Assembly: GCF_023055435.1 (NCBI RefSeq)
Contig: NW_025963779.1
Coordinates: forward strand, 36,642,001-36,706,000
Direction of reading: 5' to 3'
Origin: Haliotis rufescens
Lineage: Eukaryota
DNA: 64,000 nt
The notes beneath the pieces were generated by a model, which was not told the origin of the DNA, ran no database searches, and worked only from the letters and a program-made list of their open reading frames with translations. The translations under genes and the position numbers were made by a program. Shown here one piece after another: positions 3,001 through 53,642 of this stretch (the stretch's first letter is position 1; the number at the start of each line of letters is the position of its first letter).

Positions 3001-3230
3001 AGAAATAACACATCACTGGAGGAAGCTGCAGACTAACAGAGATATAACACGTCACTGGAGGAAGCTGCAGACCAACAGAGATATAACACATCACTGCAGG
3101 AACTGCAAGAAGCTGTAGACTAACAGACATATAACACATCACTGCAGGAAGCTGCAGACTAACAGACATATAACACATCAATGCACGAAGCTGCAGACTA
3201 ACACAGACATAACTGGAAACTGCAGACTAA
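1..3230. repeat. 39-bp tandem array, about 80 copies (TATAACACATCACTGGAGGAAGCTGTAGACTAACAGAGA)
   Basis: Direct periodicity; highly homogeneous, decaying after about 3080; runs off the left edge. Confidence 0.97.
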
Positions 3231-3428: not shown

Positions 3429-6400
3429 CTGAATGTCTCCGGGGCCAGAGGCTGCAGCACAGTACAGGCGTCCCCCATCAGCTTCCACAGGCAGGACAGG
3501 TCCGCACGCTGGGACGCAGCTCTGACACAAACAGGGAGTTCATCATTCACATGTTCCAATATTTCATGCAGGTGCACAGGGTGCCTCAACAGACTATCTG
3601 ACATTACAACCTGGCTCATTTACCTCGTTTAATCAAATTAGACATATTGGTGTATATAAAATTATGACACACCCAACAATCAGTGTTAATTTGGGACGTA
3701 TCTTTCCACCAAAAGCATACCAGGTAGACTCCTCATTCAAAAATATGCATATCTATATTTACACTCTATAGACATGTAATGAAGTTGACCAATAGCATCA
3801 CCATAAATCAAAACCTGTCATATCTGGACCACACCCAGGACCTAAGGATGATGTGACCATGGAGTTCCCTCTTGTAAAGGATACCTCCATGTCAGAATGA
3901 TGAGATCTGATTGCTTCACGTGATATTGATAAAATATGTTATCATACCTCCATGTCAGAATGATGAGATCTGATTGGTTCACGTGATATTGATAAAATAT
4001 GTTATCATACCTCCATGTCAGAATGATGAGATCTGATTGGTTCACGTGATATTGATAAAATATTATATCATACCTCCATGTCAGAATGATGAGATCTGAT
4101 TGGTTCATGTGATTTTGATAAAATACTTTATCATACCTTCATGTCAGAATGATGAGATCTGATTGGTTCACATGATAAGACTTAAGGATGATGTGATCAT
4201 GGAGATCCCCAGTGTAATGACTTAAGGATGTGATCATGGAGATCACCAGTGTAATGATTTAAGGATCATGTGATCATGGAGATCCCCAGTGTAATGACTT
4301 AAGGATGTGATCATGGAGATCCCCAGTGTAATGATTTAAGGATGATGTGATCATGGAGATCCCCAGTGTAATGACTTAAGGATGATGTGATCATGGAGAT
4401 CCCCGGTGTAGTGACTTAAGGATGTGATCATGGAGATCCCCGGTGTAATGACATAAGGATGTGATCATGGAGATCCCCAGTGTAATGACTTAAGGATGAT
4501 GTGATCATGGAGATCCCCGGTGTAGTGACTTAAGGATGATGTGATCATGGAGATCCCCGGTGTAGTGACTTAAGGATGTGATCATGGAGATCCCCGGTGT
4601 AATGACATAAGGATGTGATCATGGAGATCCCCAGTGTAATGACTTAAGGATGATGTGATCATGGAGATCCCCGGTGTAATGACATAAGGATGTGATCATG
4701 GAGATCCCCAGTGTAATGACTTAAGGATGATGTGATCATGGAGATCCCCGGTGTAGTGACTTAAGGATGTGATCATGGAGATCCCCGGTGTAATGACATA
4801 AGGATGTGATCATGGAGATCCCCAGTGTAATGACTTAAGGATGATGTGATCATGGAGATCCCCGGTGTAATGACTTAAGGATGTGATCATGGAGATTCCC
4901 GGTGTAATGACTTAAGGATGTGATCATGGAGATTCCCGGTGTAATGACTTAAGGATGTGATCATGGAGATCCCCAGTGTAATGACATAAGGATGTGATCA
5001 TGGAGATCACCAGTGTAATGACTTAAGGATGTGATCATGGAGATCCCCGGTGTAATGACTTAAGGATGTGATCATGGAGATCCCCAGTGTAATGACATAA
5101 GGATGTGATCATGGAGATCACCAGTGTAATGACTTAAGGATGTGATCATGGAGATCCCCGGTGTAATGACTTAAGGATGTGATCATGGAGATCCCCAGTG
5201 TAATGACTTAAGGATGATGTGATCATGGAGATCCCCAGAGTAATGACTTAAGGATGTGATCATGGATATCCCAAGTGTAATGACTTAAGGATGTGATCAT
5301 GGAGATCCCCGGTGTAATGACTTAAGGATGTGATCATGGAGATCCCCAGTGTAGTGACTTAAGGATGATGTGATCATGGAGATCCCCAGTGTAATGACTG
5401 AAGGATCATGTGATCATGGAGATCCCCAGTGTAATGACTTAAGGATGTGATCATGGATATCCCCAGTGTAATGACTTAAGGATGTGATCATGGAGATCCC
5501 CAGTGTAATGACTTAAGGATGTGATCATGGAGATCCCCGGTGTAATGACTTAAGGATGTGATCATGGAGATCCCCAGTGTAATGACTTAAGGATGTGATC
5601 ATGGAGATCCCCAGTGTAATGACTTAAGGATGTGATCATGGAGATCCCCGGTGTAGTGACTTAAGGATGTGATCATGGAGATCCCCGGTGTAGTGACTTA
5701 AGGATGTGATCATGGAGATTCCCGGTGTAGTGACTTAAGGATGTGATCATGGAGATCCCCGGTGTAGTGACTTAAGGATGTGATCATGGAGATCCCCGGT
5801 GTAGTGACTTAAGGATGTGATCATGGAGATCCCCGGTGTAGTGACTTAAGGATGTGATCATCGAGATCCCCGGTGTAATGACTTAAGGATGTGATCATGG
5901 AGATCCCCGGTGTAATGACTTAAGGATGTGATCATGGAGATCCCCGGTGTAGTGACTTAAGGATGTGATCATGGAGATCCCCGGTGTAGTGACTTAAGGA
6001 TGTGATCATGGAGATCCCCGGTGTAATGACTTAAGGATGTGATCATGGAGATCCCCGGTGTAGTGACTTAAGGATGTGATCATGGAGATCCCCGGTGTAA
6101 TGACTTAAGGATGTGATCATGGAGATCCCCGGTGTAGTGACTGAAGGATGCACCATCTCACCTGGTCAGATAAACCAAGGCCTCCTGACACTTGTCCCGA
6201 GCCAGGCCGTCCAGACAGGTGGTCAAGTGTTGCCGTGCCAACAGCAACAGGGTTTCACCAAGACCTGAACAGAGAGATGCTACTGTAAATTTACAGAAAA
6301 CACTACATACATGCATACTGCAGCATGACTATCAATGTAATATAGAATGTGTTACAGACACATGCTCTGAACTGTGTAACTGGGTGTTGCGTGCAGTGTT

Positions 6401-9400
6401 ACTGATATATGTAGCATCTCTACTTGGACATGCTGCCCACCTTTGAGTGCTGGCACATAGTTGTGGGACTTCTCCAGGATGGTCTTGTACTCCGCCACAG
6501 CCTCGGGGTATTCTCCTAGGGTCTGCTTAATGCTGGCAATTCTGTAGTCAAACATGAAAAGAGATTGTTATAGATAACCATTAAAAACATTAGTATTACA
6601 ATGAAAAGAACACACTTTTTACAGGTGCCAATGCCAGTAAGTGATGTGAAAATTTTGTCCATGTTGAGTGGTTGAGTGAGTGGTTGAGTGTTTGAGTGAG
6701 TGTTTGAGTGAGTGTTTGAGTGAGTGGTTGAGTGGTTGGGTGAGTGAGTGAGTGAGTGAGTGAGTTTTTATGATGAACTTTGCAACATTCAAACAATATC
6801 ATGAAGTGGGCTCCACACATCTTTAGGAAGTGACATTCAAGATGTTGGGTGGGTAGGAAGTAATCATGTACTCACTGGAAGAGACTGTACACTGATTCTG
6901 GGTTCAACTGTAATGAAAGAAGTTATGAGTCATGTTACATTGTTGAGGGTTCATGCCAATCTTTGGAAACAAATTCAAGCACTTGTAAAGTAACTTTCAT
7001 GTAACCTTTCACCACAGTCAAAGGCACTGTTATCAAATCAAGTACACATACATATTTGAAATGTCCAGGTGATTACAGGTTGTTGTTTTTAAACAGTCAG
7101 ATTGCTGTATGAACAGACACATTCCTTTTACAATGGTTTGCACCTATCATTTCTACTATTACCGCTACATTGATCATTTTCTTAAGTATAAGTACTTAAA
7201 AAGGTGCAATGGATTTCATAGAATTCTGAGACTCTTTACCCACCATGCCCACCAAAACACATTGCGCAAAAGTCTTTATGATATTCGATCAAACACCCCT
7301 ACACCATCAATCAAGACATAATTATGTCTCCTCAACATTTCTGCTTCATTGTACATGTTATAAAATGTCAAAATCAGACAAGAAATTTGTTCTCAAATGT
7401 ACCTAAAATGAGCACTGATTTTGACCACACTATATGAGTGAGTATTGTTTTATGCCATTTTTACCAATATTCCAGCAATATCACGGCAGGGGACACCAGA
7501 AATGGGCTTCATACATTGTACCCATGTGGGGCATCAAAACCGGGTTTTCAGTGTGACGTACGAACACTTTAACCACTAGGCTACCCCACCGCCCTGCCCC
7601 ACACAACATGAAACAAAGCAGTTTGGTTTGTGGTATATATACTTGAAAGCAATACTTGACTGTAACATCTCCCTGACTACTTCTGTCCTCACCTCAGCTG
7701 CCTTTGTGAACGTCTTGAGAGCTGCTGTGTAGCTCCCCCGGTGCAGGTAAGCCTCGGCCAAACACTCCCACACATGGCTGACAAAAGGAAAATGGTGATT
7801 GTAGTAGCTGCCTATAAATAATCATCTGGATATCACGTCCCATTCTGTTGGGGTATGATGACACATCAGCCAATTCACTGAGGAAGTGAGTGAGTATGGT
7901 TTTACGCTGCTTTTAGCAATATTCCAGCAATATCACAGCGGGGGACACCAGAAATGGGCTTCACACATTGTACCCATGTCGAGAATCAAACCCAGGTCTT
8001 TGGCATGACGAGCAAATGCTTTAATCACTAGGCTACTAGACCGCCCCTCACTGAGGAAGATCTCATTATTTCAGTTGCCATGTGTGACAAGAATATCTTC
8101 ATCCGGGATACAGAGGAGGGAAATGTGAAATGTACACATGGTTACAAAGACCAAGGCGCAAATACAGGGTGTCATTTGAATACTTTACCTTCCAATATAT
8201 TAATACTTAATATAAATTTAACACTTGGACTGCTTTAAAAAGTGTCTCTCCATGGCCAGAGTGAATAATGAAACATCTCAAGCAAATATTTAATATCCGA
8301 TTGCAAAACATACAGAAACAGGTATTGTGATTTTTATACATATTTTCTATCATCTATTCACAAAACAGTCATCATATATATGATGCATCTGTCTTCTTTC
8401 AATAATGATTTTAAAACACTCTAACTGGCAAGTTATATTCTGCTGTGTCATGATCATGCTTGCCAATAACTAGAGTTTATGGCCCCCTTTCACAAAGTAG
8501 CGCTACGACTGTCGTAAGTTTACGTTAAAGTTTAGGAGTTACTGTCGTACTGCGGTCCCTTTGCTCTATGACAGTCATAACTCCAATACGTTAACATATA
8601 TCAACCAGTGGTAGTGCTAAGACTGCTTTGTGAGGCAGGGACCATGTTAGAACATGGGTTCTTACTTGTCTCGGGGGTCTGCTCTGAGAGCCGCCTGGAA
8701 TGATGCCACGGCGATGGTGGGGTCGTCATGTCGCACCTGATACAGACCTAGCCTCAGCCAGGCCCACTTGCCACTAGTCATACAAACACACATAATGAGA
8801 AAAAATACTCCACAAAAAGCACTGTTGCTTATACTGTTGTCTAAATCTTAATGCTGTGATAAAAGCTGAATCCCACTGTAGTGCTACATATCCTACCACA
8901 ATAGCAGCTTTGGGGTCTTTTCATGCGTGAAGACAATGCTTACCAGTATGGGTAAACATTTTTCCACAATTGAAGAACATCTTTTCAAACTTAAAAATAT
9001 ATTTCCATGCTATGAACAAATCCAAGTCACATCATAATACAGATATTGTTTGCCACAATACCAATACAAACTGTTTAATATCTACATCCCTAGTAAATAG
9101 TTCTAATTCAAACAAACAGTTGGCCTGCACTCACCAGCCAGCATTGGCCTGACTTGTGGCAGCCTCCAGAAGGGCCTTGGCTTCCTCCTGCAACCAGTAA
9201 CATCTCTACAGGCACAGCTCTATAACACAGCCCCTCATCTACGGGGACCATTGTTATGGATTGGAAATTGAAAAATCTTGGACTGGAATCAGCCTTTCAT
9301 CTAACCTGACATTAGTGGCCCAGTGACAAAAGTGGCCCAGTGACACAAGCGGCCCTGTGACATAAGTGACACAAGCGGCCCTGTGACATAAGTGACACAA

Positions 9401-12400
9401 GTGGCCCTGTGACATAAGTGACACAAGTGGCCCTGTGACATAAGTGACACAAGTGGCCCTGTGACATAAGTGACACAAGTGGCCCTGTGACATAAGTGAC
9501 ACAAGTGGCCCTGTGACATAAGTGGCCCAGTGATATAAGTGGCCCAGTGACACAAGTGGCCCAGTGATATAAGTGGCCCAGTGACACAAGTGGCCCTGTG
9601 ACATAAGTGACACAAGAGGCCCTGTGATATATAAGTGACTTAAGTGGCCCAGTGACACAAGCGGCCCTGTGATATAAGTGGTCCTGTGACATATGTGGCC
9701 CCTTAACACAAGTGGCCCTGTGATATAAGTGGCCCAGTGACACAAGTGGGCCCCGTGACATATGTGACACAAGTGGCCGAGTGATATAAGTGGCCCTGTG
9801 AAACAAGTGACACAAGTGGCCCTGTGACATAAGTGACACAAGTGGCCCTGTGACATAAGTGGCCCAGTGATATAAGTGGCCCAGTGACACAAGTGGCCCA
9901 GTGATATAAGTGGCCCAGTGACACAAGTGGCCCCGTGACATAAGTGACACAAGAGGCCCTGTGATATATAAGTGACTTAAGTGGCCCAGTGACACAAGCG
10001 GCCCTGTGATATAAGTGGTCCTGTGACATATGTGGCCCCTTAACACAAGTGGCACTGTGATATAAGTGGCCCAGTGACACAAGTGGGCCCCGTGACATAT
10101 GTGACACAAGTGGCCCTGTGATATAAGTGACATAAGTGGCCCTGTGACACAAGTGGTCCTGTGATATAAGTGACATAAGTGGCCCAGTGACATAAGTGGC
10201 CCAGTGACACAAGTGGCCCTGTGACATAAGTGGACCTGTGACACAAGGGGCCCTGTGACACAAGTGGACCCGTGACACAAGTGGCCTAGTGACACAGTGG
10301 CCCAGTGACACATGTGGCCCTGTGTTATAAGTGGCCCAGTGACACATGTGACCCTGTGTTATAAGTGGCCCAGTGACACCAGTGACATAAGTGACACCAA
10401 TGGCCCTGTATCAAAGTGGCTGGTGACAAAGTGGCCCTGTTACAAAATGGCCTGGTGACAAAGTGACCCTGTTACAAAATGGCCCTGTGATAAAGTGGCC
10501 CTGTTACAAATGGCCTAGAGACAAAGTAGCCTAGTGACAAAGTGGCCCTGTGACAAAGTAGCCTAGTGACAAAGTGGCCCTGTGACAAAGTGGCCAAGTG
10601 ACAAAGTGGCCCTGTGACAAAGTGGCCCTGCTACAAAATGGCCCAGTGACAAAATGGCCCTATGGAGGTTTTTCTCTTGGAAGAAATAAAGTTGTTCATC
10701 ATGCCCTTATACAAAGCATTTGTCGTCTTTCAATAATCATTAATATATTTCACCTGACATCTAATAATCTGCTATGTCATGATCACATATTCCAATAACC
10801 AGGGCCCAGTTTCACACAGCGACTGTAGTGCTATAACAGTTGTAACTCCTATACTTCAACATGAAGGGGGCGCCAACAATAGGCTTTGATAGTGAGGAGA
10901 ATCGGACACTGTGCTGGTCTTTGGCATGACAAATGAAGGACTACATGTCTTGACCAACCCAACACCCTTATAAGAAGACCTTATTTCCATCAAAACAGTT
11001 TCAGTTGTGACTTACATCTTCACCAATGGCGACCAAGATGTCACAGAGTGCAGCTCCAGCCTCCTCATTAGCAGGGTCAAGGTCGTACGCCTTCTGATAG
11101 CAACGCTTGGCTTTTCTGTTTAATAGTGTTAAAAAGAAAGTGACAAAAAACAGATCAGGATAACTGAAGTTGACAGCTGAATCAACATCACTACCACTGC
11201 CAGTTAACATCAAAAGAAGCCATGAGCAAACTAAAGGGAGTCAACTCAACCATCAGGTTGAATACATACACATTCTCCTTCTGCACAGTGGCGTAGAAGT
11301 GTCCCAGGTAGAGGAATATGTCACTATTGTAGGGGTCAAGTTTGGCTGCCTGAAACATGATAAACATTTATGTATGATGTGCAATGTCATTTTGTTTCAA
11401 TGAACATACAAATCAAGTATTATCTTTAAGTGTATTATCAGAAGCTGTAGTATCAGTGAAGATTTCAACTTCTTTCAATGTGACACTAAATCCCTAAGTC
11501 AATCAAATGTTGGCCACATGGGCCTTAGGAAAGCCCTAAAACATCTCTTCTGCATCCCTCACCTTAAGGTAGGCCTTGAAACATCTCTCCTGCACCCCTC
11601 ACCTTAAGGAAGGTCTTGAAACATCTCTCCTGCACCCCTCACCATAAGGAAGGCCTTGAAACATTTCTCCTGCACCCCTCACCTTATAGAAGGTCTTGAA
11701 ACATCTCTCCTGCACCCCTCACCTTAAAGAAGGCCTTGAAACATCTCTCCTGGACCCCTCACCTTATAGAAGGCCTTGAAAATCCTTCCCGCACCCCTTA
11801 CCTTAAGGAAGGCCTTGAAACATCTCTCCTGCACCCCTCACCTTATAGAAGGTCTTGAAACATCTCACCTGCACCCCTCACTATAAGGAAGGCCTTGAAA
11901 CATCTCTCCTGCACCCCTAACCTCAAAGAAGGCCTTGAAACATCTCTCCTGCACCCCTCACCTTGAGGAAGGCCTTGAAACATCTCTCCTGCACCCCTCA
12001 CCTTGTGGAAGGCCTTGAAACATCTCTCCTGCACCCCTAACCTCAAAGAAGGCCTTGAAACATCTCTCCTGCACCCCTCACCTTAAGAAAGGCCTTGAAA
12101 CATCTCTCCTGCACCCCATCCTGGCCTTCGGTGTCTCGCAGCTGCCACAGGACTCGCCCCAGCATGTACTGGTGTCCACTCACACCGGGGGCGTCCTCAG
12201 TCAGCTTCTCAAACCTGTCACAACAGACAGGCCCAAACTGTGCAACTTCTAGGTAATACCTACACAAGCTTTGATACCATCTCTTTGAGGACTAATTGGG
12301 TTCACAAAACAATGTTCAGTTTAATTGTTATACTGATTAAGTACTGGATATGAAAGTATTCTGATCTGTGATGATCTGTTCTTTTAAGGGTATGACAATC

Positions 12401-24400: not shown

Positions 24401-27400
24401 GTGCACGTGGCGTATTATTACAACTCTATAACTTCACAATGCGAGGTATTACGCCTTTGCAATGAAAGAAATGTACCATACATACAGTTTGGTCAGCCAT
24501 GGTTCTTGTCGAATGATAGATTTCTTTTATTTTTGTCTTGTGTGAAAAATCAACACGTCTGTCTCTTACAGATGACATAAGGAAAGTGATTTGGGTGAGA
24601 GTTGCTCCCCCTGGCGTGAGGCGCCGTTGGGGGTGAGGCCCCGTAAGGGTGGTCGTATATCATACAAAAACGAAGTTTTTTGTGTGGTAACATTTTTTAT
24701 TAAAGAAAAATGGTTACAACTATGTCATGTAGATTTTCTTGAGCAAGGAAAATGCAAAAAGTGCCCCAAGGAGGATTTAATCAGAAAGAAAATTTTGTAT
24801 ATAAATTTCAAACTGTAAACAATAATAATGCCAAGTGTCATATGTAGTATTGCATTACATGCTAATCACAGATTAATGTAGTCATTTTGTCTCAGTAGAT
24901 AATGAACTATTGAATGTAACAGTTGCTAGAAGCGTGTCCTACCGTGTGAGAGCCTCCTGGTGCTGGCCTGTGTGGAACAGGATCCGGCCACGGAGGGCCT
25001 CTCTCTCACCATCAGTCTCTGGCACATCGCCCAGGTGGTGCTGACAATACACATTCACAAATGGGGAATTAATCATGTTAAGGTTTCAGGTTTGATATCA
25101 GGTTAATTTGATAATTCTGATAGGATTAACATTATCTTTGAGTCCTTGATAGGCATTTTAAAGTGGGTACGAAAAAATAACAAGACATTGGAATGACAAC
25201 TTCTGAAACAATTTCAATATTTGAGAAAAAAAGGTTTGCTTTAGCCGTATGTGTTGAGTAAGGATGTAATTCCCTAATACAGTTGAAGAACAAAACTGCA
25301 TGCAGATCAGTGGAATAAAGTGTTGGATAAAATCTTCTTCTGCTCTCTTTGTTTCATCTCTTTTCAACAATGACCTTTTAAAAACTGATGATAAGTTTTG
25401 TAAAGCAGAAATAGCATGATCACAATGATTTAATGGAGAGGTGTCTTGTTGACTGACATGAGTGAATGCTACAGTCAGCAATATTCCAGCTGCATCACCA
25501 AATAATCTCGTCAGCGCCTACCGCAAACTAGTGGTTGACAACATGAGCGATGATTCACACCATCAGGGTATGAAGACACACATTGCAACATGGTTGTCAT
25601 TAGTTTGGGTCTTTACACGTCAGTTGCAGGGCATCCCTTCTGCCCTGGTATCCTCACAGGGGTCTTGTTGATGCAGTGGAGCAAGGACTACTAGGCCTTG
25701 TCATGCTGCTATCTGTCCTAACTGGTTCCCCTCACATTCATCTACACTAACCTGTGCATCTGCTATATTCCCTTGCTTCAGACAAATGTATACCAGGAGG
25801 CTTCTAGACTCTGGACTTTCAATCACATCCTGAAAATTGAGTGAAGAAATGAATCTCCAATCTGTACATGTTAGTAATAACTTTAATTAACAAAGGAAAT
25901 CAAACTTAGGAGCTCATAAAGCAGAAAATAACCACATAACTGATCAATGTCACGACTACCAGATTTCAAGATTTGATCAGTGAACTGAGGATTGCAATTT
26001 ACTATGATCTCATAACCTGAAATTGCAAACCAACTGGATTTATTGTTTAATTGTTATTTAACGCCACACTCAGCAATATTACAGCTAAATGACAGCGGTC
26101 TGTCAATATTCGAGTCTGGACCAAAACAATACTGAGATACAAGCAGATGTGCCTTGTTTTTCCAAGGTTGTTGTCATAGAATGAATATACAACTCTCAAT
26201 GTATTTAGAAGTAGACAAAAATTTAAATGATTAAGGGTGCTGGCTGTTTCTCAAGTTACATGTGCTTAACAGTTTAATGTGTTTGTTGTTTAACGCCGCA
26301 CTCAGCATATTCCAGCTATATGATGATGGTCTGTAAATAATCGAGTCTGGACAAGACAATCCAGTGATTGACATCATGAGCATTGATCCACGCAATTGGG
26401 ATACGATGAAATGCATCAACTAAGTCAGCGAGCCTGACCACCCAAATCCCGCCTTTTACAGCAAGCATGGGTTGCTGGGATCTTCACAGGCTCAAACCAA
26501 CAGGATGAAACAAAACAATTTAGTGGGGAGTAAATGTATTAAGAATGACGACAGACATGACTTGTTTGTAAATGTAATGGTCAGTCAGTTCAACTCATAC
26601 ATGGTTGTCAGCTTTTAGCAGTGGGGGGTGTGACTGCTGACAGTGATCAGCCATGCAGGCTCAAGCTCCTCACATATGTGGAGCTCCCTACACTATCACT
26701 GCCACCAGTCACTGTAATAGGCGGCCACAGAACTGACTCTACAGACTAGGGGGAGATAACTCTAGATGTGTACCTGTGACAGGATCTCCCTTGCCTGTGC
26801 CAGACAGTGGTGTGAACCGACTCTACAGACTAGGGGCAGATAACTCTAGATGTGTACCTGTGACAGGATCTCCCTTGACTGTGCCAGACAGTGGGGTGTA
26901 CCGACTCTACAGGGGGCAGATAACTCTAGATGTGTACCTGTGACAGGATCTCCCTTGACTGTGCCAGACAGTGGGGTGAACCGACTCTACAGGGGGCAGA
27001 TAACTCTAGATGTGTACCTGTGACAGGATCTCTCTTGCCTGTGCCAGACAGTGGGGTGAACCGACTCTACAGGGGGCAGATAACTCTAGATGTGTACCTG
27101 TGACAGGATCTCCCTTGCCTGTGCCAGACAGTGGGGTGAACCGTCTCTACAGGGGGCAGATAACTCTAGATGTGTACCTGTGACAGGATCTCCCTTGCCT
27201 GTGCCAGACAGTGGGGTGAACCGACTCTACAGGGGGCAGATAACTCTAGATGTGTACCTGTGACAGGATCTCTCTTGCCTGTGCCAGACAGTGGGGTGTA
27301 CCGACTCTACAGGGGGCAGATAACTCTAGATGTGTACCTGTGACAGGATCTCTCTTGCCTGTGCCAGACAGTGGGGTGAACCGACTCTTCAGGGGGAAGA

Positions 27401-30400
27401 TAACTCTAGATGTGTACCTGTGACAGGATCTCCCTTGCCTGTGCCAGACAGTGGGGTGAACCGACTCTACAGGGGGCAGATAACTCTAGATGTGTACCTG
27501 TGACAGGATCTCCCTTGCCTGTGCCAGACAGTGGGGTGTACCGACTCTACAGGGGGCAGATAACTCTAGATGTGTACCTGTGACAGGATCTCCCTTGCCT
27601 GTGCCAGACAGTGGTGTGAACCGACTCTACAGACTAGGGGCAGATAACTCTAGATGTGTACCTGTGACAGGATCTCCCTTGACTGTGCCAGACAGTGGGG
27701 TGAACCGACTCTACAGGGGGCAGATAACTCTAGATGTGTACCTGTGACAGGATCTCCCTTGCCTGTGCCAGACAGTGGGGTGAACCGACTCTACAGGGGG
27801 CAGATAACTCTAGATGTGTACCTGTAACAGGATTTCCCTTGCCTGTGCCAGACAGTGGGGTGAACCAACTCTACAGGGGGCAGATAACTCTAGATGTGTA
27901 CCTGTAACAGGATTTCCCTTGCCTGTGCCAGACAGTGGGGTGAACCGACTCTACAGGGGGCAGATAACTCTAGATGTGTACCTGTGACAGGATCTCTCTT
28001 GCCTGTGCCAGACAGTGGGGTGAACCGACTTTACAGGGGGCAGATAACTCTAGATGTGTACCTGTGACAGGATCTCTCTTGCCTGTGCCAGACAGTGGGG
28101 TGAACCGACTCTACAGGGGGCAGATAACTCTAGATGTGTACCTGTGACAGGATCTCCCTTGCCTGTGCCAGACAGTGGGGTGAACCGACTCTACAGGGGG
28201 CAGATAACTCTAGATGTGTACCTGTGACAGGATCTCCCTTGCCTGAGCCAGACAGTGGGGTGAACCGACTCTACAGGGGGCAGATAACTCTAGATGTGTA
28301 CCTGTGACAGGATCTCCCTTGCCTGAGCCAGACAGTGGGGTGAACCGACTCTACAGGGGGCAGATAACTCTAGATGTGTACCTGTGACAGGATCTCCCTT
28401 GCCTGTGCCAGACAGTGGGGTGAACCGACTCTACAGGGGGCAGATAACTCTAGATGTGTACCTGTGACAGGATCTCCCTTGCCTGTGCCAGACAGTGGGG
28501 TGAACCGACTCTACAGACTAGGGGCAGATAACTCTAGATGTGTACCTGTGACAGGATCTCCCTTGACTGTGCCAGACAGTGGGGTGAACCGACTCTACAG
28601 GGGGGAGATAACTCTAGATGTGTACCTGTGACAGGATCTCCCTTGACTGTGCCAGACAGTGGGGTGAACCGACTCTACGAGGGGAGATAACTCTAGATGT
28701 GTACCTGTGACAGGATTTCCCTTGCCTGTGCCAGACAGTGGGGTGTACCGACTCTACAGGGGGCAGATAACTCTAGATGTGTACCCGTGACAGGATCTCT
28801 CTTGCCTGTGCCAGACAGTGGGTTGAACCGACTCTACAGGGGGCAGATAACTCTAGATGTGTACCTGTGACAGGATCTCTCTTGCCTGTGCCAGACAGTG
28901 GGGTGAACCGACTCTACAGGGAGCAGATAACTCTAGATGTGTACCTGTGACAGGATCTCCCTTGCCTGTGCCAGACAGTGGGGTGAACCGACTCTACTGA
29001 CTAGGGGCAGATAACTCTAGATGTGTACCTGTGACAGGATCTCCCTTGCCTGTGCCAGACAGTGGGGTGAACCGACTCTACTGACTAGGGGCAGATAACT
29101 CTAGATGTGTACCTGTGACAGGATCTCCCTTGCCTGTGCCAGACAGTGGGGTGAACCGACTCTACAGGGGGCAGATAACTCTAGATGTGTACCTGTGACA
29201 GGATCTCCCTTGCCTGTGCCAGACAGTGGGGTGAACCGACTCTACAGGGGGCAGATAACTCTAGATGTGTACCTGTGACAGGATCTCTCTTGCCTGTGCC
29301 AGACAGTGGGGTGAACCGACTTTACAGGGGGCAGATAACTCTAGATGTGTACCTGTGACAGGATCTCCCTTGCCTGTGCCAGACAGTGGGGTGAACCAAC
29401 TCTGTACAAACAGGTGGCTTTCAAGAGCTGGAGTTCACAGGTGATGGATTTGCTGGGCAATGTCAATAGGCGGTTCTTCTTCTCTAGTGCCTTCAGTCCT
29501 GTACAGAAGGAAATACATACTGACATAAATCGGCCAAAGAAACAGAAATGAGTGAGTGGGCTCAGTTACAGTTATCTTGTTGGAGTATCAGTTCATGCTG
29601 GCCGAAAGCCTAAAGTGATGCAGGTCGTACATGTTTAGCACTTTGGTGAAACTCAAAAGTATTGGTAAAGTGCTGACAAACCAAAGAGCATATTGAGATC
29701 AAATCTGATCAGCAGATCCTGGTGTGACAAAGAGAAAAAACTCAACACAGAATCATATAAAATGGGGCTTCAACTTTGTGCAAAAATGATGAAGGAATAT
29801 TGTAGTGAGTGAAAGTAGATATCAGCTAATAATTCAGTCAAAAAGCAACGGAACACTTAAGCATATAAATGATAGCAGGAGGTTAACCATCTATAACACA
29901 GGTGGCATATGTTCTTTTCATACTCACAAGCCATGTTGGCCAGCTTATCCTGCTTCTATCATCCAAGGATGAGTCAGTCGCCTTCTGGGCAGAGAAATTC
30001 TTACCTTTATCAGCGATTTCAACACATGCCATGTCTGTGTGTAACTGCTGGTGACATCTGGCTAAGAACACATAGCCACTCACAACACTCGTGAGGCTGT
30101 TCATTCCTAGAAGGTAACATCAAATCCATGATTCTGGCTAATCAATATCCCACAAGTTAATATATTTCTTTCATCTCCTAACGTACAATGATTTCAATGT
30201 AAAACTGTAAATTCATGCATCTAATGTAGCAGCATCGTACATGGATTATCTGGGATTCTGGATAAACTTCATCCCTCTTACAATAACAGAACTGACACAC
30301 ATATCACAACATAGCCCTATCACAGTACCCTTCCATGTACTTGCCTTGCTGCAGGAGGTCTCTGGCCTCCACCAGCTTCTGGTCCGCCAGTTGAATCACT

Positions 30401-33400
30401 CCCTGGGACAGACTCACATATGGGCTGCTGGCTGATAGAGCTCCAAGTTTCTGAGACACATCCCTCAGAGTGGAGCTGACTCTGTCATCAGAACCTAAAG
30501 CAAAAAAATTGAACATGTTTTCAACTTACTGGTAGTTAAACTGCATAGCTGCTGAAAACAGTGTACAAGCCAAGTATGTGCATATACCACAGGTCTGTCG
30601 CAGAAGGTCCTTAGAGGTCCTCATAGAAAATGTCCCTATCCAGCATGTCACTTTTTAAACAGAAATCCTTTAAGGCAGTTAGTTGGCTGTGGTGAAGATT
30701 GAGTAATCCTTACAGCCAGTATGATACTGTGTATAGTCCCATGACAAATGTTTGGAGTGAGTGAGTGAATGCTGTTTGACTACACAGTCAGCAATATGCC
30801 TGATATATGAGTTGGTGATTCTTACTTATCTCTGCATCAGCAATTTTGTCTAGAGTCTAGATATATGTCACGGTAGTCTGTCAATACTGTTATTGAATAT
30901 GGGCCAGGCAAACCAGTGACTAAAAGCATCAGGTTAAATGACATACAATTTCAGGCACATCACACAGCCTCACCACCTGATCCCTCTTTGTGGACTCAAA
31001 CTACAAGCAAGGGTTACTGGGCCAGGCAAACGAGGGGCTGACTGCATGAGCAAAGATCAAAGGGGTACCACGACCCATGATCAGCCAGATCACACATTGC
31101 AACCACCTGGTTCCCATCAGTCATCACATACAGCAAACACAGGCGGATATGCCAACCCTAATTGAAACTCGGGCATAATCAGATGGGTAATTTCTTGTGA
31201 AAGCAAGTAATGTTTGAGAATCTCGGATGCAGGTTTTCACTTCAATGTTTTCATAAGGCTTAGACTTAACTGAACAGACATAAGCGAAACAAATTCCTCT
31301 TTGGACGCTAATTCACTGTTTTTCAGACCAATAATTTTGTGTTTCGACTTCCAAAGAAAAAATGATGTACATGCAATAAGTTTCCTATCCACACCAGCAA
31401 AGATGGATCGATAAATGACTTGACCGTGTTACAACCAATCACAGATCACGTCAATGAGTAATAGATATTTTAATGCTAAGTGAATTGAAAGCATGGCTCT
31501 CATTGGTCAGCACAGAATGCTTTATGTCACTGGTGCAGTAAAAATTTGCTCTCCATGATATTTTATGCATGTAAAAGTGAAATTTGGGGGTAAAATCATA
31601 ACTATTACATCAAAATTGTGGTCAGGCTTGCTGACTTAGTTGATGCATGTTATCGTATCCCAATTGCGTGGATTGATGCTCATGATGTCAATCACTGGAT
31701 TGTCTGGTCCAGACTCGATTATTTACAGACCGCTGTCATATAGCTGAGTGTGGCGTTAAATAACAAACAAACAAACAACATCAAAATTGTAATGGTTGGT
31801 ATCTCTCCATGAGATGCATGGGACATTTTTTCCCTCTGATTCCACAGAGCACAATCTGATTCAATCCTCAGTTTTCTCCGATATGATACCTCTCTGCATG
31901 AAGTATCAGCATTCAGACAAGCATTCCTGATTTCTGTATCTCGAAAACAAACATGATCAGAGAGTTCAGAATGTAAAGAAATAAACCCGTGCTATTATAT
32001 CATTAGGTTAAGATTGGGAAGCCAAAGTTCGCTCAGAGTTCACCTGGCGTGACCTTCTATGGAGGTGTCCTCAGCCCTTCACACAGAGATATTATAATGA
32101 GAATACACAGAGAAAAGACTGAGTCCTATCCTACAGGGAGAGAGATGTAGTTATGGCCACCCACCCTGGAGGTTCTCCTCCAGCAGCAACAGAGTCCAGG
32201 TCTCCAGGACATAGAGGTTGGCAGGGTACCGGTCATGGAGGCTTCGACACTCTTCCCACAAGCTGGACCGGGGACCATGCTGAAAGAGGGAGCAGTTTGG
32301 CTTCAAACTTAAATACTATATATATATATATCTAAGTTTTAAAAAGCTCAGGTTGCCTACCGGTAATAGTCTGTGTCATTTTCAGTCAAAACAGGGTTCC
32401 ATTCAACAAGGTAATGTTGGTAGTGACTAAGTCTGTGTTACGTTGACAACCAACAACTGTAATAGTGCTATGACCACAACGTGGACCAGTGCCCAGGGTT
32501 TAGTCCAGTGGTTGGTCACCTACCTTGACCAGCAGCTCCAGGAACTGCTGTATCAGTCTCTCACTGCCCTCTGCCGGCAGATCTTCTAATGATACTGCCT
32601 CCTTGCATGTCTTCAACATCTGGGAAGCAGATCATTGACCACAATCACATAAACACCATAACACTCTCCACAAGTATCTTCCATTTCAAAAACATCTAAT
32701 AACTTCAGACAGACACCAATATGTGATCACTGTATTTCAATGTAATATTGTTCTTAATATGGGGCCTTTTTTATTACGTAAACTAAAAACCACTGTCAGC
32801 ACCTCAGTGGTCAAAAAGAAACCATAACTGCAAAAACATGTCGTTCTTGCACCCACTTGCACAAAGCGATCTTAGCACTATGACTATCTTAAGTCTATGT
32901 TAGAGTATGGGAGTAAGGATCAACGTGGCAGTCACGGTGCTGGAGTAATTATGATAACTGTTGCACTGACCAGTTCTTGATATTCAGTAGAGAGAGTCTT
33001 CTGACCATGTAGGACATCAAACAGAGACATGAGTGCGTTCATGCGCTGCTGTCCAGCCTGGTCCTCGGACAGCACATGCCGGTACATGCTCACAGCCTGG
33101 GGGAAGACAACAGTTCAAGCACATGTCAGAGTAATGTTATAACACATAACCGCCATACAAACAAGCCTTTATTACTCGTAATATCTATCCATGATTAACT
33201 GTGACACAGCTGTTATCATCTCAGTCATAACAGCAACAGATCTTTGAATCTAAGTATGCTGATTAGCTGAAAATTGCAAAAAAATTAATATCATGAAATG
33301 AATTAAATGAAATAACAGAAGAGATTACACGTGTAATATTTTCTAATCATTCATTAAAGCTACCTTTTAAATAATGTTACATACATGTATAATAAAATAA

Positions 33401-36400
33401 AAAAAATTAAAACTTACAGTGAATCAGAAAAATTACATAAGTTCTTTTGTGAACAAGTTAAATGTAGAATCAGTTTGTATCGTAACAGTCAAGAGCAGTC
33501 CAAAGAACGTGAAGAACATGGACTAAGAGATGAATCTTCTTTTAATGCATGTTAAAAGCCACTACCTCGTCCACATTCCCCAGTTTCCCATGAAGCTGGG
33601 CAAGTTTCCTCCCTATGTCCAGCATCTTCTCCTTGTCACTGATGGAGGGAAACACAAGGATTCATGTCTCCAGACAAACACACACTTTCAATTATCTGAA
33701 TTTAAACATATGTAGCCATCTTCATATACAATGCAACATTTTTCAGAATTCTCTTGAATACTTATTCCTGAACATGCTGCAGCTATTGTGTTATTGACCT
33801 ACCTAGCCTGTAGAGACATCAGCTTCTTGTACACACTGGCCAGGTCAGCATCATTTTCGGGAGATGGGTTCTTCTCGTAAAACCCACACAGACCCTGAAA
33901 ATCAACTAAGGCTTTAACATGGATAAATAGCTAAATATTAGTATGATAAGGCTGCATTGATAAAAATTCTCTGGCACATTTTTCTCAAAGGTGAGGGGGA
34001 ATAGGACTTGTTTATTGTTTTTATTGAAAGGTAAAGTGATGCAGAGCTCCAGATAAGCTTTTGGTGTTGTGGGTATTTTACCCATGCATTTTAAAATCAT
34101 TGGGTATCAGTAATTCTATCTGGGTATTCAAATTTTGTTACCCACCAGTTTTTACACATGTGGGTATTTAAGTTAAATATTTAAAAACACAATATTTATC
34201 TAGTCCCTGCAAACTGGTGTCGTGTGGGTTCGAGAGCTTTATAGGACTCAAAAATACCACGATACTTCCACAAGAAAGTGTGATGGCAAATGATCATGAT
34301 GTAACTGTCATCATGGAGTTTGGCAAGGTTGACGGAATGTCCGTTAATAATTTCAAAATAAGTTGCTTATTTGCTAATCGAGTACGCAGGGTTACTTCAC
34401 AATATTTTGATGATACGCACAAGTTTTATTTTTGTAGCGAATCTGTAATGTTCGTTGCTTATTTGATACGCTTGGATTTTATTTTACTGCGTAGTTCTGC
34501 ATTTTTTATGCGTATTTTACCCAGATATGCAGCTTATCTGGAGCTCTGTGATGAGGGAGAAACTCTTTTGATATTGAATTGTTTGATATGTATTTCTGAG
34601 AAGTTGACGGATGAAAAAGTAGACACAATTTATGGATAACAACTTCTTTATATTACTGTAATGGCAACATTCAGTATAGATTCTTATACCGTTGTCAAGC
34701 AAGATGGTAATGGAGATGTTTCGGTACAGATCCTTTTACTGTTGTCAAGCAAAACAGTAATGGCAACATTTTGGGACAGACCCTTACACCGTTGTCAAGC
34801 AAAACTGTAATGACGACGTTTCGGTATAGATCCTTTTACCATTGTCAAGCAAGACTGTAATGGCGACGTTTCGGCATAAATCCTTACACCGTTGTCAAGC
34901 AACACTGTAATGGAGATGCTTTGGTACAGATCCTTATACTGTTGTCACACAAGACTGTAATGGCAACGTTTTGGTATTGATCCTTTTACCATTGTCAAGC
35001 ATGACTGTAATAGCGACGTTTCGGCATAATTCCTTACACCGTTGTCAAGCAACACTGTAATGGAGATGTTTCGGTACAGATCCTTATACTGTTGTAAAGC
35101 AAGACTGTAATGGCCACATTTTAGGCATTGATCCTTACACTGTTGTCAAACAATACTGTAATCGCGACGTTTCGGCATAAATCCTTACACCGTTGTCAAG
35201 CAACACTGAAATGGAGATGCTTCGGTACAGATCCTTATACTGTTGTCAAGCAAAACTGTAATGGCAACGTTTCGGTATAGATCCTTACATTGTTGTCAAG
35301 TTTATAACGTTATATTGTTCACACCAAGCATACTAAGAAACACAACTGGGCACATATTGAACTCAATCCTTTAATACACTGTCAGATGTCAAACATGATT
35401 CATATGACCTAGATTTGACAAATATTCTTATATTCACCATAAAAATTACAGGCATAGAGGAACTAAAGAAATGTGCCAATGCACAAGAAACATTTCGTTA
35501 TTTCATACTTAAGACTTTCAAACATTTCTATATTCACAACTCAGAGCTAGGGGTGAAATGATACAGCAAGGTCATGATACGATATGTATCATGATACATA
35601 GGTCAAGCTACGATACGTATCGTGATACACATATTTACGACAAATCGTGTGGAAACTTCTTGACTATAATATTTCAGAGCAGGTTCAAAAGGTAAAACTA
35701 GCTGTAGATACATGTTTATAATGGCTATTTTAAGTAGTGAACATGAAACGCTAATTCCATACACATTTTGCAACATTTGACTGACAAAAACGCTGAGGCT
35801 CATTATAAGAGTAGTGATGAGTTGAGGTGAAATGTCACGTTCAATATTATTACACTTATATAGCGACTTGCCTCAGAACTTCCGCTCTCCAGGGTGAACA
35901 CTCTCCACTAGACCACGGAGGTGGTTCTAATAAATAATAAGTAATTTATTTTAGCAGATGTATCACCTTGTATCGATAGAGTAAAACATGTATTGTGTAT
36001 TGTATAGTTTCATGAAAACTCACGATGCACTGGTGCACCGATTTATCATGTCCCCCCAGTACCTCACACAAACTGATAAAATATGATATCACCCTGTTGC
36101 TGATCGAGGCCTTTCCAAGCCTGTGCACACTGTGCATGTACATACCTGCCATGCTAGAATCTGCTCGGGTGCTGCATCTATGGCTTTCTTGTAAGCCTTC
36201 AGTGCCTTGTCAGCCTGCTCCAGACCCTCAGCAGCCACGCCCACAAACACCAGGGCATTGTAGTTGGTCTTGTCACTAGCTAGCACTGTCTGAAATATAC
36301 AACCAACAGTACAGCATCCAATCTTGGGGAGATGCAGTAATTGAGGTGACTGGGCTGATTGGTGGAAAATACCAAATACATGGGTCTTATTACCCATTCT

Positions 36401-36888
36401 GTTTAGTTTTCATGGTCTGTTGGATCAGTTATTTTTCTGTGGGACTGGTTCGGTTGGCGTCCTGAGTGAGTAAGTGAGTTGGATTTAACGCCGCTTCTAA
36501 CAGTATTCCAGTTATATAGCGGCGTGTCAGCTTAATGTGGGAGGAAAGACCGAAGTAGTGCAGGTCTCAGACATTTACCACTTCGGTGAAACCCACGAGC
36601 ACGGGTATGGTGTTGACAAACCTAGAAACATAATCGAGGCGAACCAGGATTCGAACCCACAATCACAGGTTTCTGGCGTGCCCAAGGGACGCAACTCTTC
36701 ACAGCAAATCGCAGCGCCTTAGACAACTGGGCCACCTGTGCCCCCCTGGCGTCCTGAAACATTACATTTGTAGAACACTGTATGACGTATTTAGTCACCT
36801 TGCAATGTCGGCGTGCTTCCTTAAATTCTTTATTCCGAATTGCCTCCCTTGCATTTTTCAAAGCGTTCTTTACTTCCTTGGAATCCAT
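3429..36888 (-). CDS. SKIC3: SKI complex subunit 3 / tetratricopeptide repeat protein 37 (5' ~732 codons; gene continues beyond left edge)
   Basis: Exons in transcript order: 36888-36799, 36289-36146, 33894-33803, 33638-33566, 33096-32971, 32619-32524, 32279-32165, 30494-30345, 30106-30005, 29498-29353, 25829-25752, 25040-24943, 12214-12082, 11349-11270, 11115-11016, 9187-9135, 8773-8666, 7777-7693, 6907-6876, 6541-6441, 6264-6162, 3521-3429. All are GT-AG except one GC-AG, and phases are consistent. Peptides [76 protein letters not shown] and [15 protein letters not shown] match my recollection of TTC37/SKI3. Confidence 0.93.
3881..4176. repeat. 63-bp tandem array, about 4.7 copies
   Basis: Unit ATACCTCCATGTCAGAATGATGAGATCTGATTGGTTCACGTGATATTGATAAAATATGTTATC. 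Confidence 0.93.
4179..6150. repeat. 37/40-bp tandem array, about 52 copies (GACTTAAGGATGTGATCATGGAGATCCCCGGTGTAAT)
   Basis: Direct periodicity; ends about 10 nt from the SKIC3 donor at 6161. Confidence 0.96.
6664..6765. repeat. (GAGT)n-type microsatellite
   Basis: Imperfect GAGT / TTGAGTGG runs. Confidence 0.85.
7435..7596 (-). mobile_element. tRNA-derived SINE (family A)
   Basis: Minus-strand head with A box (TAGCCTAGTGG) and degenerate B box (GGTTTTGATGCCC); ACTC tail; near-copy at 7886-8047. Confidence 0.75.
7886..8047 (-). mobile_element. tRNA-derived SINE (family A)
   Basis: Same sequence family as 7435-7596; 3' fragment also at 47846-47906 (+). Confidence 0.75.
9313..10661. repeat. 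Complex minisatellite built from GTGACACAAGTGGCCC(T/A) and GTGACATAA subunits, with a roughly 337-bp higher-order duplication
   Basis: The variant block AGAGGCCCTGTGATATATAAGTGACTTAAG recurs at about 9615 and 9952. The long repeat ORFs here are artefacts. Confidence 0.9.
11541..12117 (-). repeat. 40-bp tandem array, about 14 copies, of a SKIC3 exon 3' end plus donor
   Basis: Unit on the minus strand is GGGGTGCAGGAGAGATGTTTCAAGGCCTTCCTTAAG|GTGA, matching the end of exon 12214-12082. Confidence 0.93.
16682..17220 (-). repeat. In-frame 183-bp (61-codon) triplication within outer DIRS gag
   Basis: Unit starts at 16682, 16865 and 17048; single copy in the inner element (about 18880-19060). Confidence 0.85.
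17966..20236 (+). pseudogene. DIRS gag-like ORF1 (probable spliced start 17966-17980 joined to 18468; frameshifted near 18870)
   Basis: N-terminal Cys/His cluster CTGC...HDTCIKC...H...CPIC. A deletion relative to the outer copy near 18870 shifts frame into the 18950-20236 ORF, which ends in an RG-rich tail. Confidence 0.7.
20137..22304 (+). pseudogene. DIRS pol: reverse transcriptase, RNase H and Dam-like methyltransferase domain (disabled)
   Basis: Motifs [50 protein letters not shown]; catalytic YLDD mutated to YLDH; frameshifting deletion near 21220; RNase [34 protein letters not shown]; MT VDLFAS...WAFPP with TGA at 21891-21893. Confidence 0.85.
22241..23203 (+). CDS. DIRS tyrosine recombinase domain (C-terminal part of ORF3, whose N-terminal part overlaps pol from about 19992)
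   Basis: Catalytic residues intact: R (SGRRVGDI), HxxR (AHSVR), W (AAIWS), Y (FIKHY). In frame with ORF 21278-22240 but separated from it by TAG at 22238-22240. Confidence 0.85.
   Translation, partial: ACYARWCVDRRIADPFSADLVAVLEFLQSRLDVGLAASTVQGYSTAIAAFHVPVDGALLGAHPLVQRFLAGVDRIRPPVRRISPPWELSIVLDWLSGPSFRDLSSLSLQLLSWKTAFLVAVTSGRRVGDIHAMSADPELTVFHRDRVSIRLPDSYRPKVAHALHLTAPIELPALSQPSSSGTTTRHAHVLDVRRTLKSYISRTKGIRKDNQLFCCYGGRKAGSPASKQTISRWIVSTICTAYTLQGRDPPTKLKAHSVRAVATTQAYAAALPIEEICSAAIWSQPSTFIKHYQLDKHSSERARFGQSVLRTGQSSTSLAD
23673..23767 (+). other. DIRS internal complementary region (ICR) of inner element
   Basis: First half is the reverse complement of 17677-17716; second half is the reverse complement of 23967-24020. 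It encodes the circle junction GTAAAA|TTCTC. The outer-element equivalent is at 12698-12792. Confidence 0.88.
26279..26492 (-). mobile_element. SINE-like interspersed repeat (family C)
   Basis: Shares ATCACTGGATTGTCT..TCCAGACTCGATTATTTACAGACC and an AAAC tail with 31619-31778 and 61143-61410. Confidence 0.65.
26733..29405 (-). repeat. 80-bp (some 84-bp) tandem array, about 33 copies, of a SKIC3 exon 3' end plus donor
   Basis: Unit on the minus strand is AGTCGGTTCACCCCACTGTCTGGCACAGGCAAGGGAGATCCTGTCACAG|GTACACATCTAGAGTTATCTGCCCCCTGTAG; the first copy is the real exon 29498-29353. Confidence 0.95.
31619..31778 (+). mobile_element. SINE-like interspersed repeat (family C), 3' part
   Basis: Similarity to 61143-61410; (AAAC)n tail. 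Confidence 0.65.
34042..34548. mobile_element. MITE, 507 bp, 18-bp TIR CAGAGCTCCAGATAAGCT, 5-bp TSD TGATG
   Basis: Perfect TIR and TSD visible; near-identical copy at 58713-59218. Confidence 0.9.
34658..35300 (-). repeat. 50-bp tandem array (13 copies) of a Penelope-like minimal hammerhead-like motif
   Basis: Minus-strand unit ...GC TTGACAA C GGTGTA AGGATT TATGCC GAAAC GTC GCCATTAC...; followed on the minus strand by AATATAAAGAAGTTG, as in Penelope pLTR ends. The repeat is certain; the ribozyme call is inferred. Confidence 0.7.
36463..36746 (-). mobile_element. tRNA-derived SINE (family B)
   Basis: A box TGGCCCAGTTGTCTAAGG, B box GGTTCGAATCC, ACTC tail; copies at 45105-45384 (-), 40495-40730 (+) and a degenerate one at 49018-49228. 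Confidence 0.78.
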
Positions 36889-37476
36889 GCTGTGTATAGG
36901 TCATCCAATTACTGTGCACCAAGACTCTGCACAACATCAGTTTCCCTACAACAAAAAACAGGTCAGCTCAAGCATTAAGGCCTAATTTGAAACTCATATT
37001 AACAAAGATTTTAACATGGCAGTATAGATTTATACTTATATTTTGTCACAAATCTGCATAAACGGTATTTTAAACTAATAAGTATTGACCATGTGTCCTG
37101 GATTTGTTTAGAATGGTATGTGTTAACTATCACAGACATTCACAACGGTTGTACTCTATGGTGGTGCTCTGTTGTAAATATACAAATTATCTTTGAGTGA
37201 TTCTATATTGTAAGCCATATGTTAAGTTATTAATTGCTGTGGCATTAGCATATCTGTTAACGTGCAACTCCCATACAATTGGCACAAGACTGGACCATCA
37301 CAAACCGAAGTGTTAAAGGGACAGTACATCAACGGTTCTGTAGGAAATAATTTAATAGTGTGTCACATTTGCCTCGATTAAAAAACAAGACAGAAGCCAG
37401 TTTGCTCTATGCGAAGCTCTATTGTTTTGGTTGAAGAATTAAAAATACAGAGGCATACATTGAAAAATGATCTCAC

Positions 37477-52786: not shown

Positions 52787-53332
52787 AAACCATCATTGAC
52801 ACCACATTGTCAAGCTTTAGTTTAAGACAAATGCTCAAACCAAGATTGACACTATTTTGTCAAGCCCTGGTATAAGACATACAGTCAAGCCATGATTGAC
52901 ACCATATTGTCAAGCAATAGTTTAAGACAAATGCTCAAACCATGATTGACACCATATTGTCAAGCTATAGTTTAAGACATATAGTTAAACCATGATTTAC
53001 ACCATATTGTCATGCTATAGTTTAAGACATACAGTCAAACCATGACTGACACCATATTGTCAAGCTATAGTTTAAGACATATAGTTAAACTATGATTGAC
53101 ACCATATTGTCATGCTATAGTTTAAGACATACAGTCAAACCATGATTGACACCATATTGTCAAGCTATAGTTCAAGACATACAGTCAAACCATGATTGAC
53201 ACCATATTGTCAAGCTATAGTTTAAGACATATAGTTAAACCATGATTGACACCATATTGTCAAGCTATAGTTTAAAACATATAGTTAAACCTAGAGTGAC
53301 ACCATATTGTCAAACCATGGTTTAAAACATAT
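52787..53332. repeat. 50-bp tandem array, about 11 copies (AAACCATGATTGACACCATATTGTCAAGCTATAGTTTAAGACATACAGTC)
   Basis: Direct periodicity; internal TTGACA...TGTCAA inverted repeat. Confidence 0.9.
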
Positions 53333-53642
53333 GTCACCCATGCGATCAAAGCATGGTTTAGATCAATTTGTTAAAACCATGATTCCTACCGCGTGAATTA
53401 AACCAAAAGGTATATATAATAATATATACAAGGTTAATATTCCAGGTGTACACCTCATGTTTGTATAATGATTTACACAAATGGTTTACAGACACTGTTT
53501 AAACCACACAATGTTAACATCGCATATACCACAGGGGTTTCTCATTTAGTTAATACAAGATGGTCTACATTTGGCTTACACACGCTGGAAGACAACGCAA
53601 TACTTCCACTCTTCCTGTTTTCTGTTGGTTTCAGCGATAATA

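Follow-up and report, generated by a model that had tools for sequence, protein, structure and literature searches.

A probable minisatellite of Penelope-like hammerhead motifs in a predicted SKIC3 intron of Haliotis rufescens

Abstract

A tandem array of 13 hammerhead-ribozyme units was found in a predicted intron of SKIC3 in Haliotis rufescens. With a probability of roughly 85%, the array is the 5′-truncated end of a Penelope-like element (PLE) that was amplified locally into a probably neutral minisatellite with little or no cleavage. Tandem repeats of hammerheads that derive from PLEs, 51 bp and longer, have already been published (Li, Clavereau and Pollet 2026, 10.64898/2026.07.22.740005, hereafter Li 2026), and the SKIC3-intron array is a further case. 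It would be one more transposon end turned minisatellite, which matters little as it stands.

Results

The window is the whole stretch of DNA analysed (64 kb of contig NW_025963779.1, positions 36,642,001 to 36,706,000), and coordinates of its features are collected in Table 1. Tandem Repeats Finder reported the array with a period of 50 bp in 12.9 copies and also with a period of 150 bp in 4.2 copies. The second period agrees with the higher-order periodicity of about 150 bp described in an earlier note on this DNA. Read on the minus strand, a unit consists of UUGACAA, one extra nucleotide, a 6-bp stem II around AGGAUC, GAAAC GUC, and a linker of 16 nt. Two G-C pairs form helix I. Both the layout and the helix I of about 2 bp were correctly read in that note. 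U3 of units 1–13 is located at 35299, 35249, 35199, 35149, 35098, 35048, 34998, 34948, 34898, 34848, 34798, 34748, and 34698.

Table 1. Features of the array and its host intron in the window
Feature	Position	Strand	Remarks
SKIC3 (TTC37) coding exon upstream of array	36146–36289	minus	Match to human SKIC3, E 3e-13; TPR
13-unit array	34655–35300	minus	Units 50 bp long, apart from one of 51, each corresponding to the hammerhead part of a Penelope-like pLTR; higher-order blocks of three units, about 150 bp
Unit 3, intact minimal hammerhead core, U3 to C17	35166–35199	minus	Predicted cut 35166/35165
Unit 6, intact core	35015–35048	minus	
Unit 9, intact core	34865–34898	minus	
Unit 10, intact core	34815–34848	minus	4-bp stem II
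Putative original insertion: last, broken hammerhead unit, pLTR end, and 35–38-nt "tail"	34579–34704	minus	84.5% identical to L128 (blastn); loose ends at 34616
Putative next SKIC3 coding exon	33803–33894	minus	AG/GT ends and open frame

A hammerhead descriptor that tolerated C3-G8 or U3-A8, of the kind the earlier note had proposed, was run on both strands of the 64 kb. Its four matches all lie inside the array (U3 at 35199, 35048, 34898, and 34848), and they are the four units for which an intact core and GUC had been claimed, at coordinates about 8 nt 3′ of each GUC. The complete minimal hammerhead of the U3-A8 type, comprising the core with the extra nucleotide and G10.1-C11.1, is present in 4/13 units. 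In all four, the ACGU palindrome, which is half of helix III and permits dimers, is followed by C17. The other nine units have lost G10.1, G12, C17, or the palindrome. The earlier count of 13 motifs on the SKIC3 sense strand therefore stands for the units but not for the motif, which is broken in 9/13. Units 9 and 10 are the only intact neighbours. Rfam gave no match over 33000–37000 at E values up to 10. The motif is not a chance resemblance, because its 35-nt core occurs in 623 exact copies in the genome and its reversed control in none.

Roughly halfway along a predicted SKIC3 intron (36145–33895, 2.25 kb) with GT-AG ends read from the sequence, the array is found on the sense strand, and its RNA would be spliced out together with that intron. 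Thirty nucleotides past the PLE tail is a MITE-like high-copy element of about 500 bp (34042–34548) that has terminal inverted repeats of 18 bp and is flanked by what looks like a target duplication of 5 bp. Large minisatellites occupy four other sites, at 1–3213 (39 bp × 82), 4190–6150 (37 bp × 52), 9314–10660 (17 bp × 80), and 26748–29403 (80 bp × 33), so local tandem growth is common in the window. A 50-bp × 11 array at 52787–53336 was considered as a relative and rejected as unrelated; although CTTGACAA is present in it, it lacks GAAAC-GUC and does not match the parent element.

The parent was reached by walking upstream from longer genome copies of the core. A near-intact element (L128:2776–5190) has an open 723-aa frame with reverse transcriptase (RT) and GIY-YIG domains, followed by the same hammerhead and tail. 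Pfam identified RVT_1 in this frame and gave no endonuclease match; the C-terminal GIY-YIG, with two cysteines inside the motif and no Zn-finger linker, was read by eye. Judged from these motifs, the parent is probably an endonuclease-bearing PLE of the Penelope/Poseidon type. In L128 and a second copy, L129, the hammerhead sits in the terminal repeat of the element that carries RT and GIY-YIG. L128 is near-intact and 97% identical to L129; the family has been active recently. A sister family (L132 and L133) has a hammerhead with G-C in place of one A-U pair of stem II; the covariation score of stem II was equalled in 24 of 500 shuffles, a weak result from an alignment of only 12 hand-picked rows. 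The search for a parent Penelope element that the earlier note had called for thus succeeded. Its derivation of the motif from a minimal hammerhead of a Penelope pLTR, with the U3-A8 swap and extra nucleotide described in PMC4209133, was borne out, as was its label of a ribozyme-derived minisatellite.

A 21-nt tail motif occurs in 2556 exact copies (reversed control 0). Among the first 30 of these matches, 14 have their 3′ end at +84 to +90 from the core and 12 at +122 or +123, so that two end points 35–38 nt apart cover 26/30 copies. Their 5′ ends lie within −20 to +13 of the core in 18, further upstream in 8, and at or after the cut in 4, with one of the 30 starting exactly at the cut site. 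Two of the 18 (L150 and L156) look like insertions of other elements. Among the first 30 of the 623 exact-core matches, 12 come with an inverted copy and all lack a neighbour on the same strand; L129 also bears an inverted partial copy at its 5′ end. The family thus shows the PLE traits of 5′ truncation, an optional 30–40-nt tail, and inverted partial copies. The optional tail is described in PMC8557442 and was traced to two internal reverse-transcription starts in PMC11167929. With the Penelope/Poseidon elements of these two papers, the family shares a single RT and C-terminal GIY-YIG frame, a hammerhead, 3′ ends 35–38 nt apart, and a frequent inverted 5′ copy (12/30).

On its sequence, the SKIC3 locus is best described as the 5′-truncated, hammerhead-bearing 3′ end of such an element. 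The pLTR-like sequence that the earlier note saw after the array is the PLE tail (Table 1). The rest of the 64 kb gave no further match to the parent stretch tested. No inverted 5′ copy was found at the locus, unlike in Penelope/Poseidon elements with an inverted pLTR. No clear target-site duplication was seen there, and a 6–8-nt candidate overlaps the family's own end. Reverse transcription would have begun in the tail and halted just 5′ of the hammerhead.

Two CAGT words delimit the array unit; the first stands immediately 5′ of the core and the second 8–12 nt 3′ of the cut. Units 3, 6, and 9 differ from one another by 1–2 of 44 nt, and units 2, 5, 8, and 12 by 2–5. Mean distance between units is 7.1 at lag 3, compared with 10.8 at lag 1 and 10.3 at lag 2, which indicates that three-unit blocks were copied after the units had diverged. 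We infer from this block copying that amplification took place at the DNA level. The 50-bp segment was likely duplicated between the two CAGT words, with a template switch during integration, or slippage shortly afterwards, giving rise to a seed dimer. The remaining units would then have been made in place, by unequal crossing-over or slippage.

Pieces of the array were compared with sequences from elsewhere, none of the pieces spanning all of it. Contigs of another individual (X5) are identical over 34677–34833 and 34882–35061. In a run that carries a different organism label (X8), one contig extends across the 5′ edge and shows 11 differences over 437 nt. The array is thus partly unchanged in X5 and its 5′ edge is present in X8, which indicates that it has persisted.

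Units 1–12 were compared with L128, unit 13 being left out for a 1-nt deletion. Differences fall on 27/96 CpG cells and on 37/360 cells elsewhere; counted as distinct alleles, there are 10 at 8 CpG sites and 18 at 30 other sites. Non-CpG differences number 5/120 at catalytic positions and 5/84 at loop or free positions (p 0.74), and the intact share is 4/13 in the array and 6/24 among dispersed copies (p 0.72), but array units are related, so that counts are not independent, p-values overstate independence, and the tests have low power. The dispersed intact share may be 7/24, as the ungapped test misses L155 with its 1-nt loop deletion. A dead class of units (G10.1A, G16.2A) has 4 copies and the intact class 3; amplification has not favoured intact over dead units. 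Decay of the hammerheads looks neutral, and the changes are CpG-biased. Counting against a neutral reading, four units keep every core residue, the two class-specific changes in units 3, 6, and 9 preserve pairing of stem II by way of G-U pairs, and in the whole-array fold this stem is predicted to form with a probability of 0.8–0.97 in units 3 and 6.

Discussion

The array resembles the minimal type I hammerheads of metazoan PLEs (Cervera and De la Pena 2014, PMC4209133) in U3-A8, the extra nucleotide between 9 and 10.1, G10.1-C11.1, palindromic 15.2–16.2, a long stem II, a pLTR site 3′ of the RT-EN frame, and a family mostly of single truncated copies. The same source describes the U3-A8 variant, extra nucleotide, palindromic helix III, and 2-bp helix I in Drosophila virilis, so that helix I of the array is as long as in that species; it is 4–5 bp in Schistosoma. 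Unlike the hammerheads described there, the motif is here itself the repeat unit of a 13-copy array.

The earlier note proposed that the array might self-cleave intron RNA into 50–200-nt or circular species. This reading is not supported, given that 4/13 units are intact, decay looks neutral, the predicted fold is unfavourable, and published minimal PLE hammerheads cleave weakly or depend on the element's protein (PMC4209133, PMC11167929). A cis double hammerhead was predicted to lie 16.8–18.7 kcal/mol above the minimum-energy fold for all six pairs of intact units, and 13.7–39.9 kcal/mol above it for five pairs from other arrays, and the array was predicted to fold no better than shuffles (z −0.46); folding is weak evidence here, because the energy model had no positive control and under-scores hammerhead cores.

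It is unlikely, by our estimate, that an array of the same origin still cuts a small share of SKIC3 pre-mRNA as an unselected by-product, with the four intact units pairing in cis through their ACGU palindromes and perhaps only with a PLE protein as chaperone. Four cores are intact, two of them adjacent, and in the model each of the six pairs allows a nested fold with two hammerheads. A minimal PLE hammerhead that did not cleave as a monomer is described as cleaving at a low level as a dimer or trimer (PMC4209133). Cleavage by the Anolis hammerhead was seen only when the element's protein was present, and an open 723-aa parent frame exists here; the Anolis motif is also described as dispensable for insertion in vitro and as leaving no RNA-seq read ends (PMC11167929). 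Against such cleavage stand the energy cost of the double hammerhead, helix III pair probabilities of ≤0.015 in the array fold, a helix I of 2 bp, and the cleavage of only 1/9 predicted Xenopus retrozyme dimers reported in Li 2026.

A mobile non-LTR retrozyme, in which hammerheads cut out a 50-nt RNA circle that enters the genome by rolling-circle reverse transcription, is very improbable. Li 2026 describe pLTR-derived hammerhead tandem repeats of 51–972 bp, propose local amplification from the PLE end, and report about 43% of Xenopus copies as intronic. Their operational definition, leaving aside its energy filter, covers units 9 and 10 as two consecutive complete motifs. The array is likewise a pLTR-derived type I hammerhead tandem repeat, with a unit near the short end of their range, and another unit of the PLE family, 38 bp long and joined at the cut site, recurs at four places. 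However, the junction 19-mer of the 50-bp unit occurs at six places in the genome, and an exact-match search found a 50-bp neighbour at none of the other five. The junction, with CAGT microhomology, is 11–12 nt 3′ of the cut; an ordinary PLE tail closes the array, and the block structure of the array points to growth at the DNA level. In contrast to the retrozymes of Li 2026, the array is a single locus with the PLE tail still attached and most units broken, and the exact-match search gave no sign of a mobile unit. With the expressed animal non-LTR retrozymes (Cervera and de la Pena 2020, PMC7229834) it shares a type I hammerhead per unit and a low-GC tandem repeat. Those validated retrozymes are described as having canonical hammerheads, units of 150–450 bp, many copies, and circular RNAs, whereas the array has a minimal motif, a 50-bp unit, and a single locus. 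On sequence grounds, the array falls under the motif-based definition of a retrozyme but lacks the canonical hammerhead and unit length of validated ones and, by the exact-match search, their dispersal. A literature search on Penelope, minisatellite, and hammerhead found only Li 2026, whose supplements may list families just like this one.

Least credible of all is that the host has co-opted the array to control SKIC3, by cleavage of the intron or by structured RNA. The array lies in sense within an intron of a gene for RNA decay and is present in other individuals, which speaks for such a role, but the core shows no sign of selection, the predicted fold is no better than that of shuffles, and many genes are expected to contain a copy in sense in an intron, given 2556 tail copies.

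A locally amplified PLE end, now probably decaying neutrally with little or no cleavage, thus remains the preferred reading. Among 322 fetched loci, a redundant set chosen partly with the array as query, 38 hammerhead runs were found at 34 places with 25 periods of 20 to 142 bp. The tail ends 28/38 runs, and 36/241 units are intact by a strict test. Young dimers (L008, L020, L021, and L024) differ from the parent core by 0–1.5 and lie at fold-back junctions, which suggests that a seed duplication can arise at or soon after integration. The SKIC3-intron array is probably inert, as are dozens of similar arrays in the genome. Motif-based counts of "active retrozymes" call for caution, as they include locally grown, decaying arrays of this kind. 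Its near-intact parent, truncated ends by the thousand, and dozens of hammerhead arrays of independent origin make the family a natural data set on where PLE reverse transcription stops or switches template and on whether the hammerhead cuts in vivo.

The 38-bp units are joined exactly at the cut site at four places (L022, L271, L292, and G000:C190:2072102). The first three carry 11, 8, and 37 units, with many intact cores but a 4-nt linker that leaves no helix I. A genome-wide scan of junctions near the scissile bond, made by eye on 43, 78, 68, and 46 matches, found duplications at one place at −1, two identical ones at −2, four places at 0, and none at +1; the last letter of the pattern hides about a quarter of the matches, including L020 and L024 at −1. 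Most copies that deviate around the scissile bond continue the parent sequence with a point change. The four junctions at 0 coincide with GTC microhomology, which explains a cut-site junction equally well. It is rather doubtful, though conceivable, that minisatellites arise repeatedly from the hammerhead end of this family, by stalling of RT 5′ of the hammerhead and a template switch, and that the 38-bp cut-site arrays are footprints of cutting in vivo. The clustering of 5′ ends within −20 to +13 of the core in 18/30 copies and the spread of runs over 34 places with 25 periods prompt this reading. If true, the cut-site-joined arrays would give a handle on what PLE hammerheads do.

Other elements recur in the same PLE end. 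A LINE with RT and RNase H-like frames and an AAGT-repeat end is found in the 3′ untranslated part of the PLE, often about 15 nt 5′ of the hammerhead (L078, L079, L082, L111, L133, and L156; also L092, L096, L098, L103, L105, and L108), including in the sister family. This LINE may target the PLE terminal repeat. In L064/L150 and L131, a different element sits at the same point. At L111, a 2375-bp block with the PLE endonuclease end and hammerhead is present in three tandem copies (5159, 7534, and 9909).
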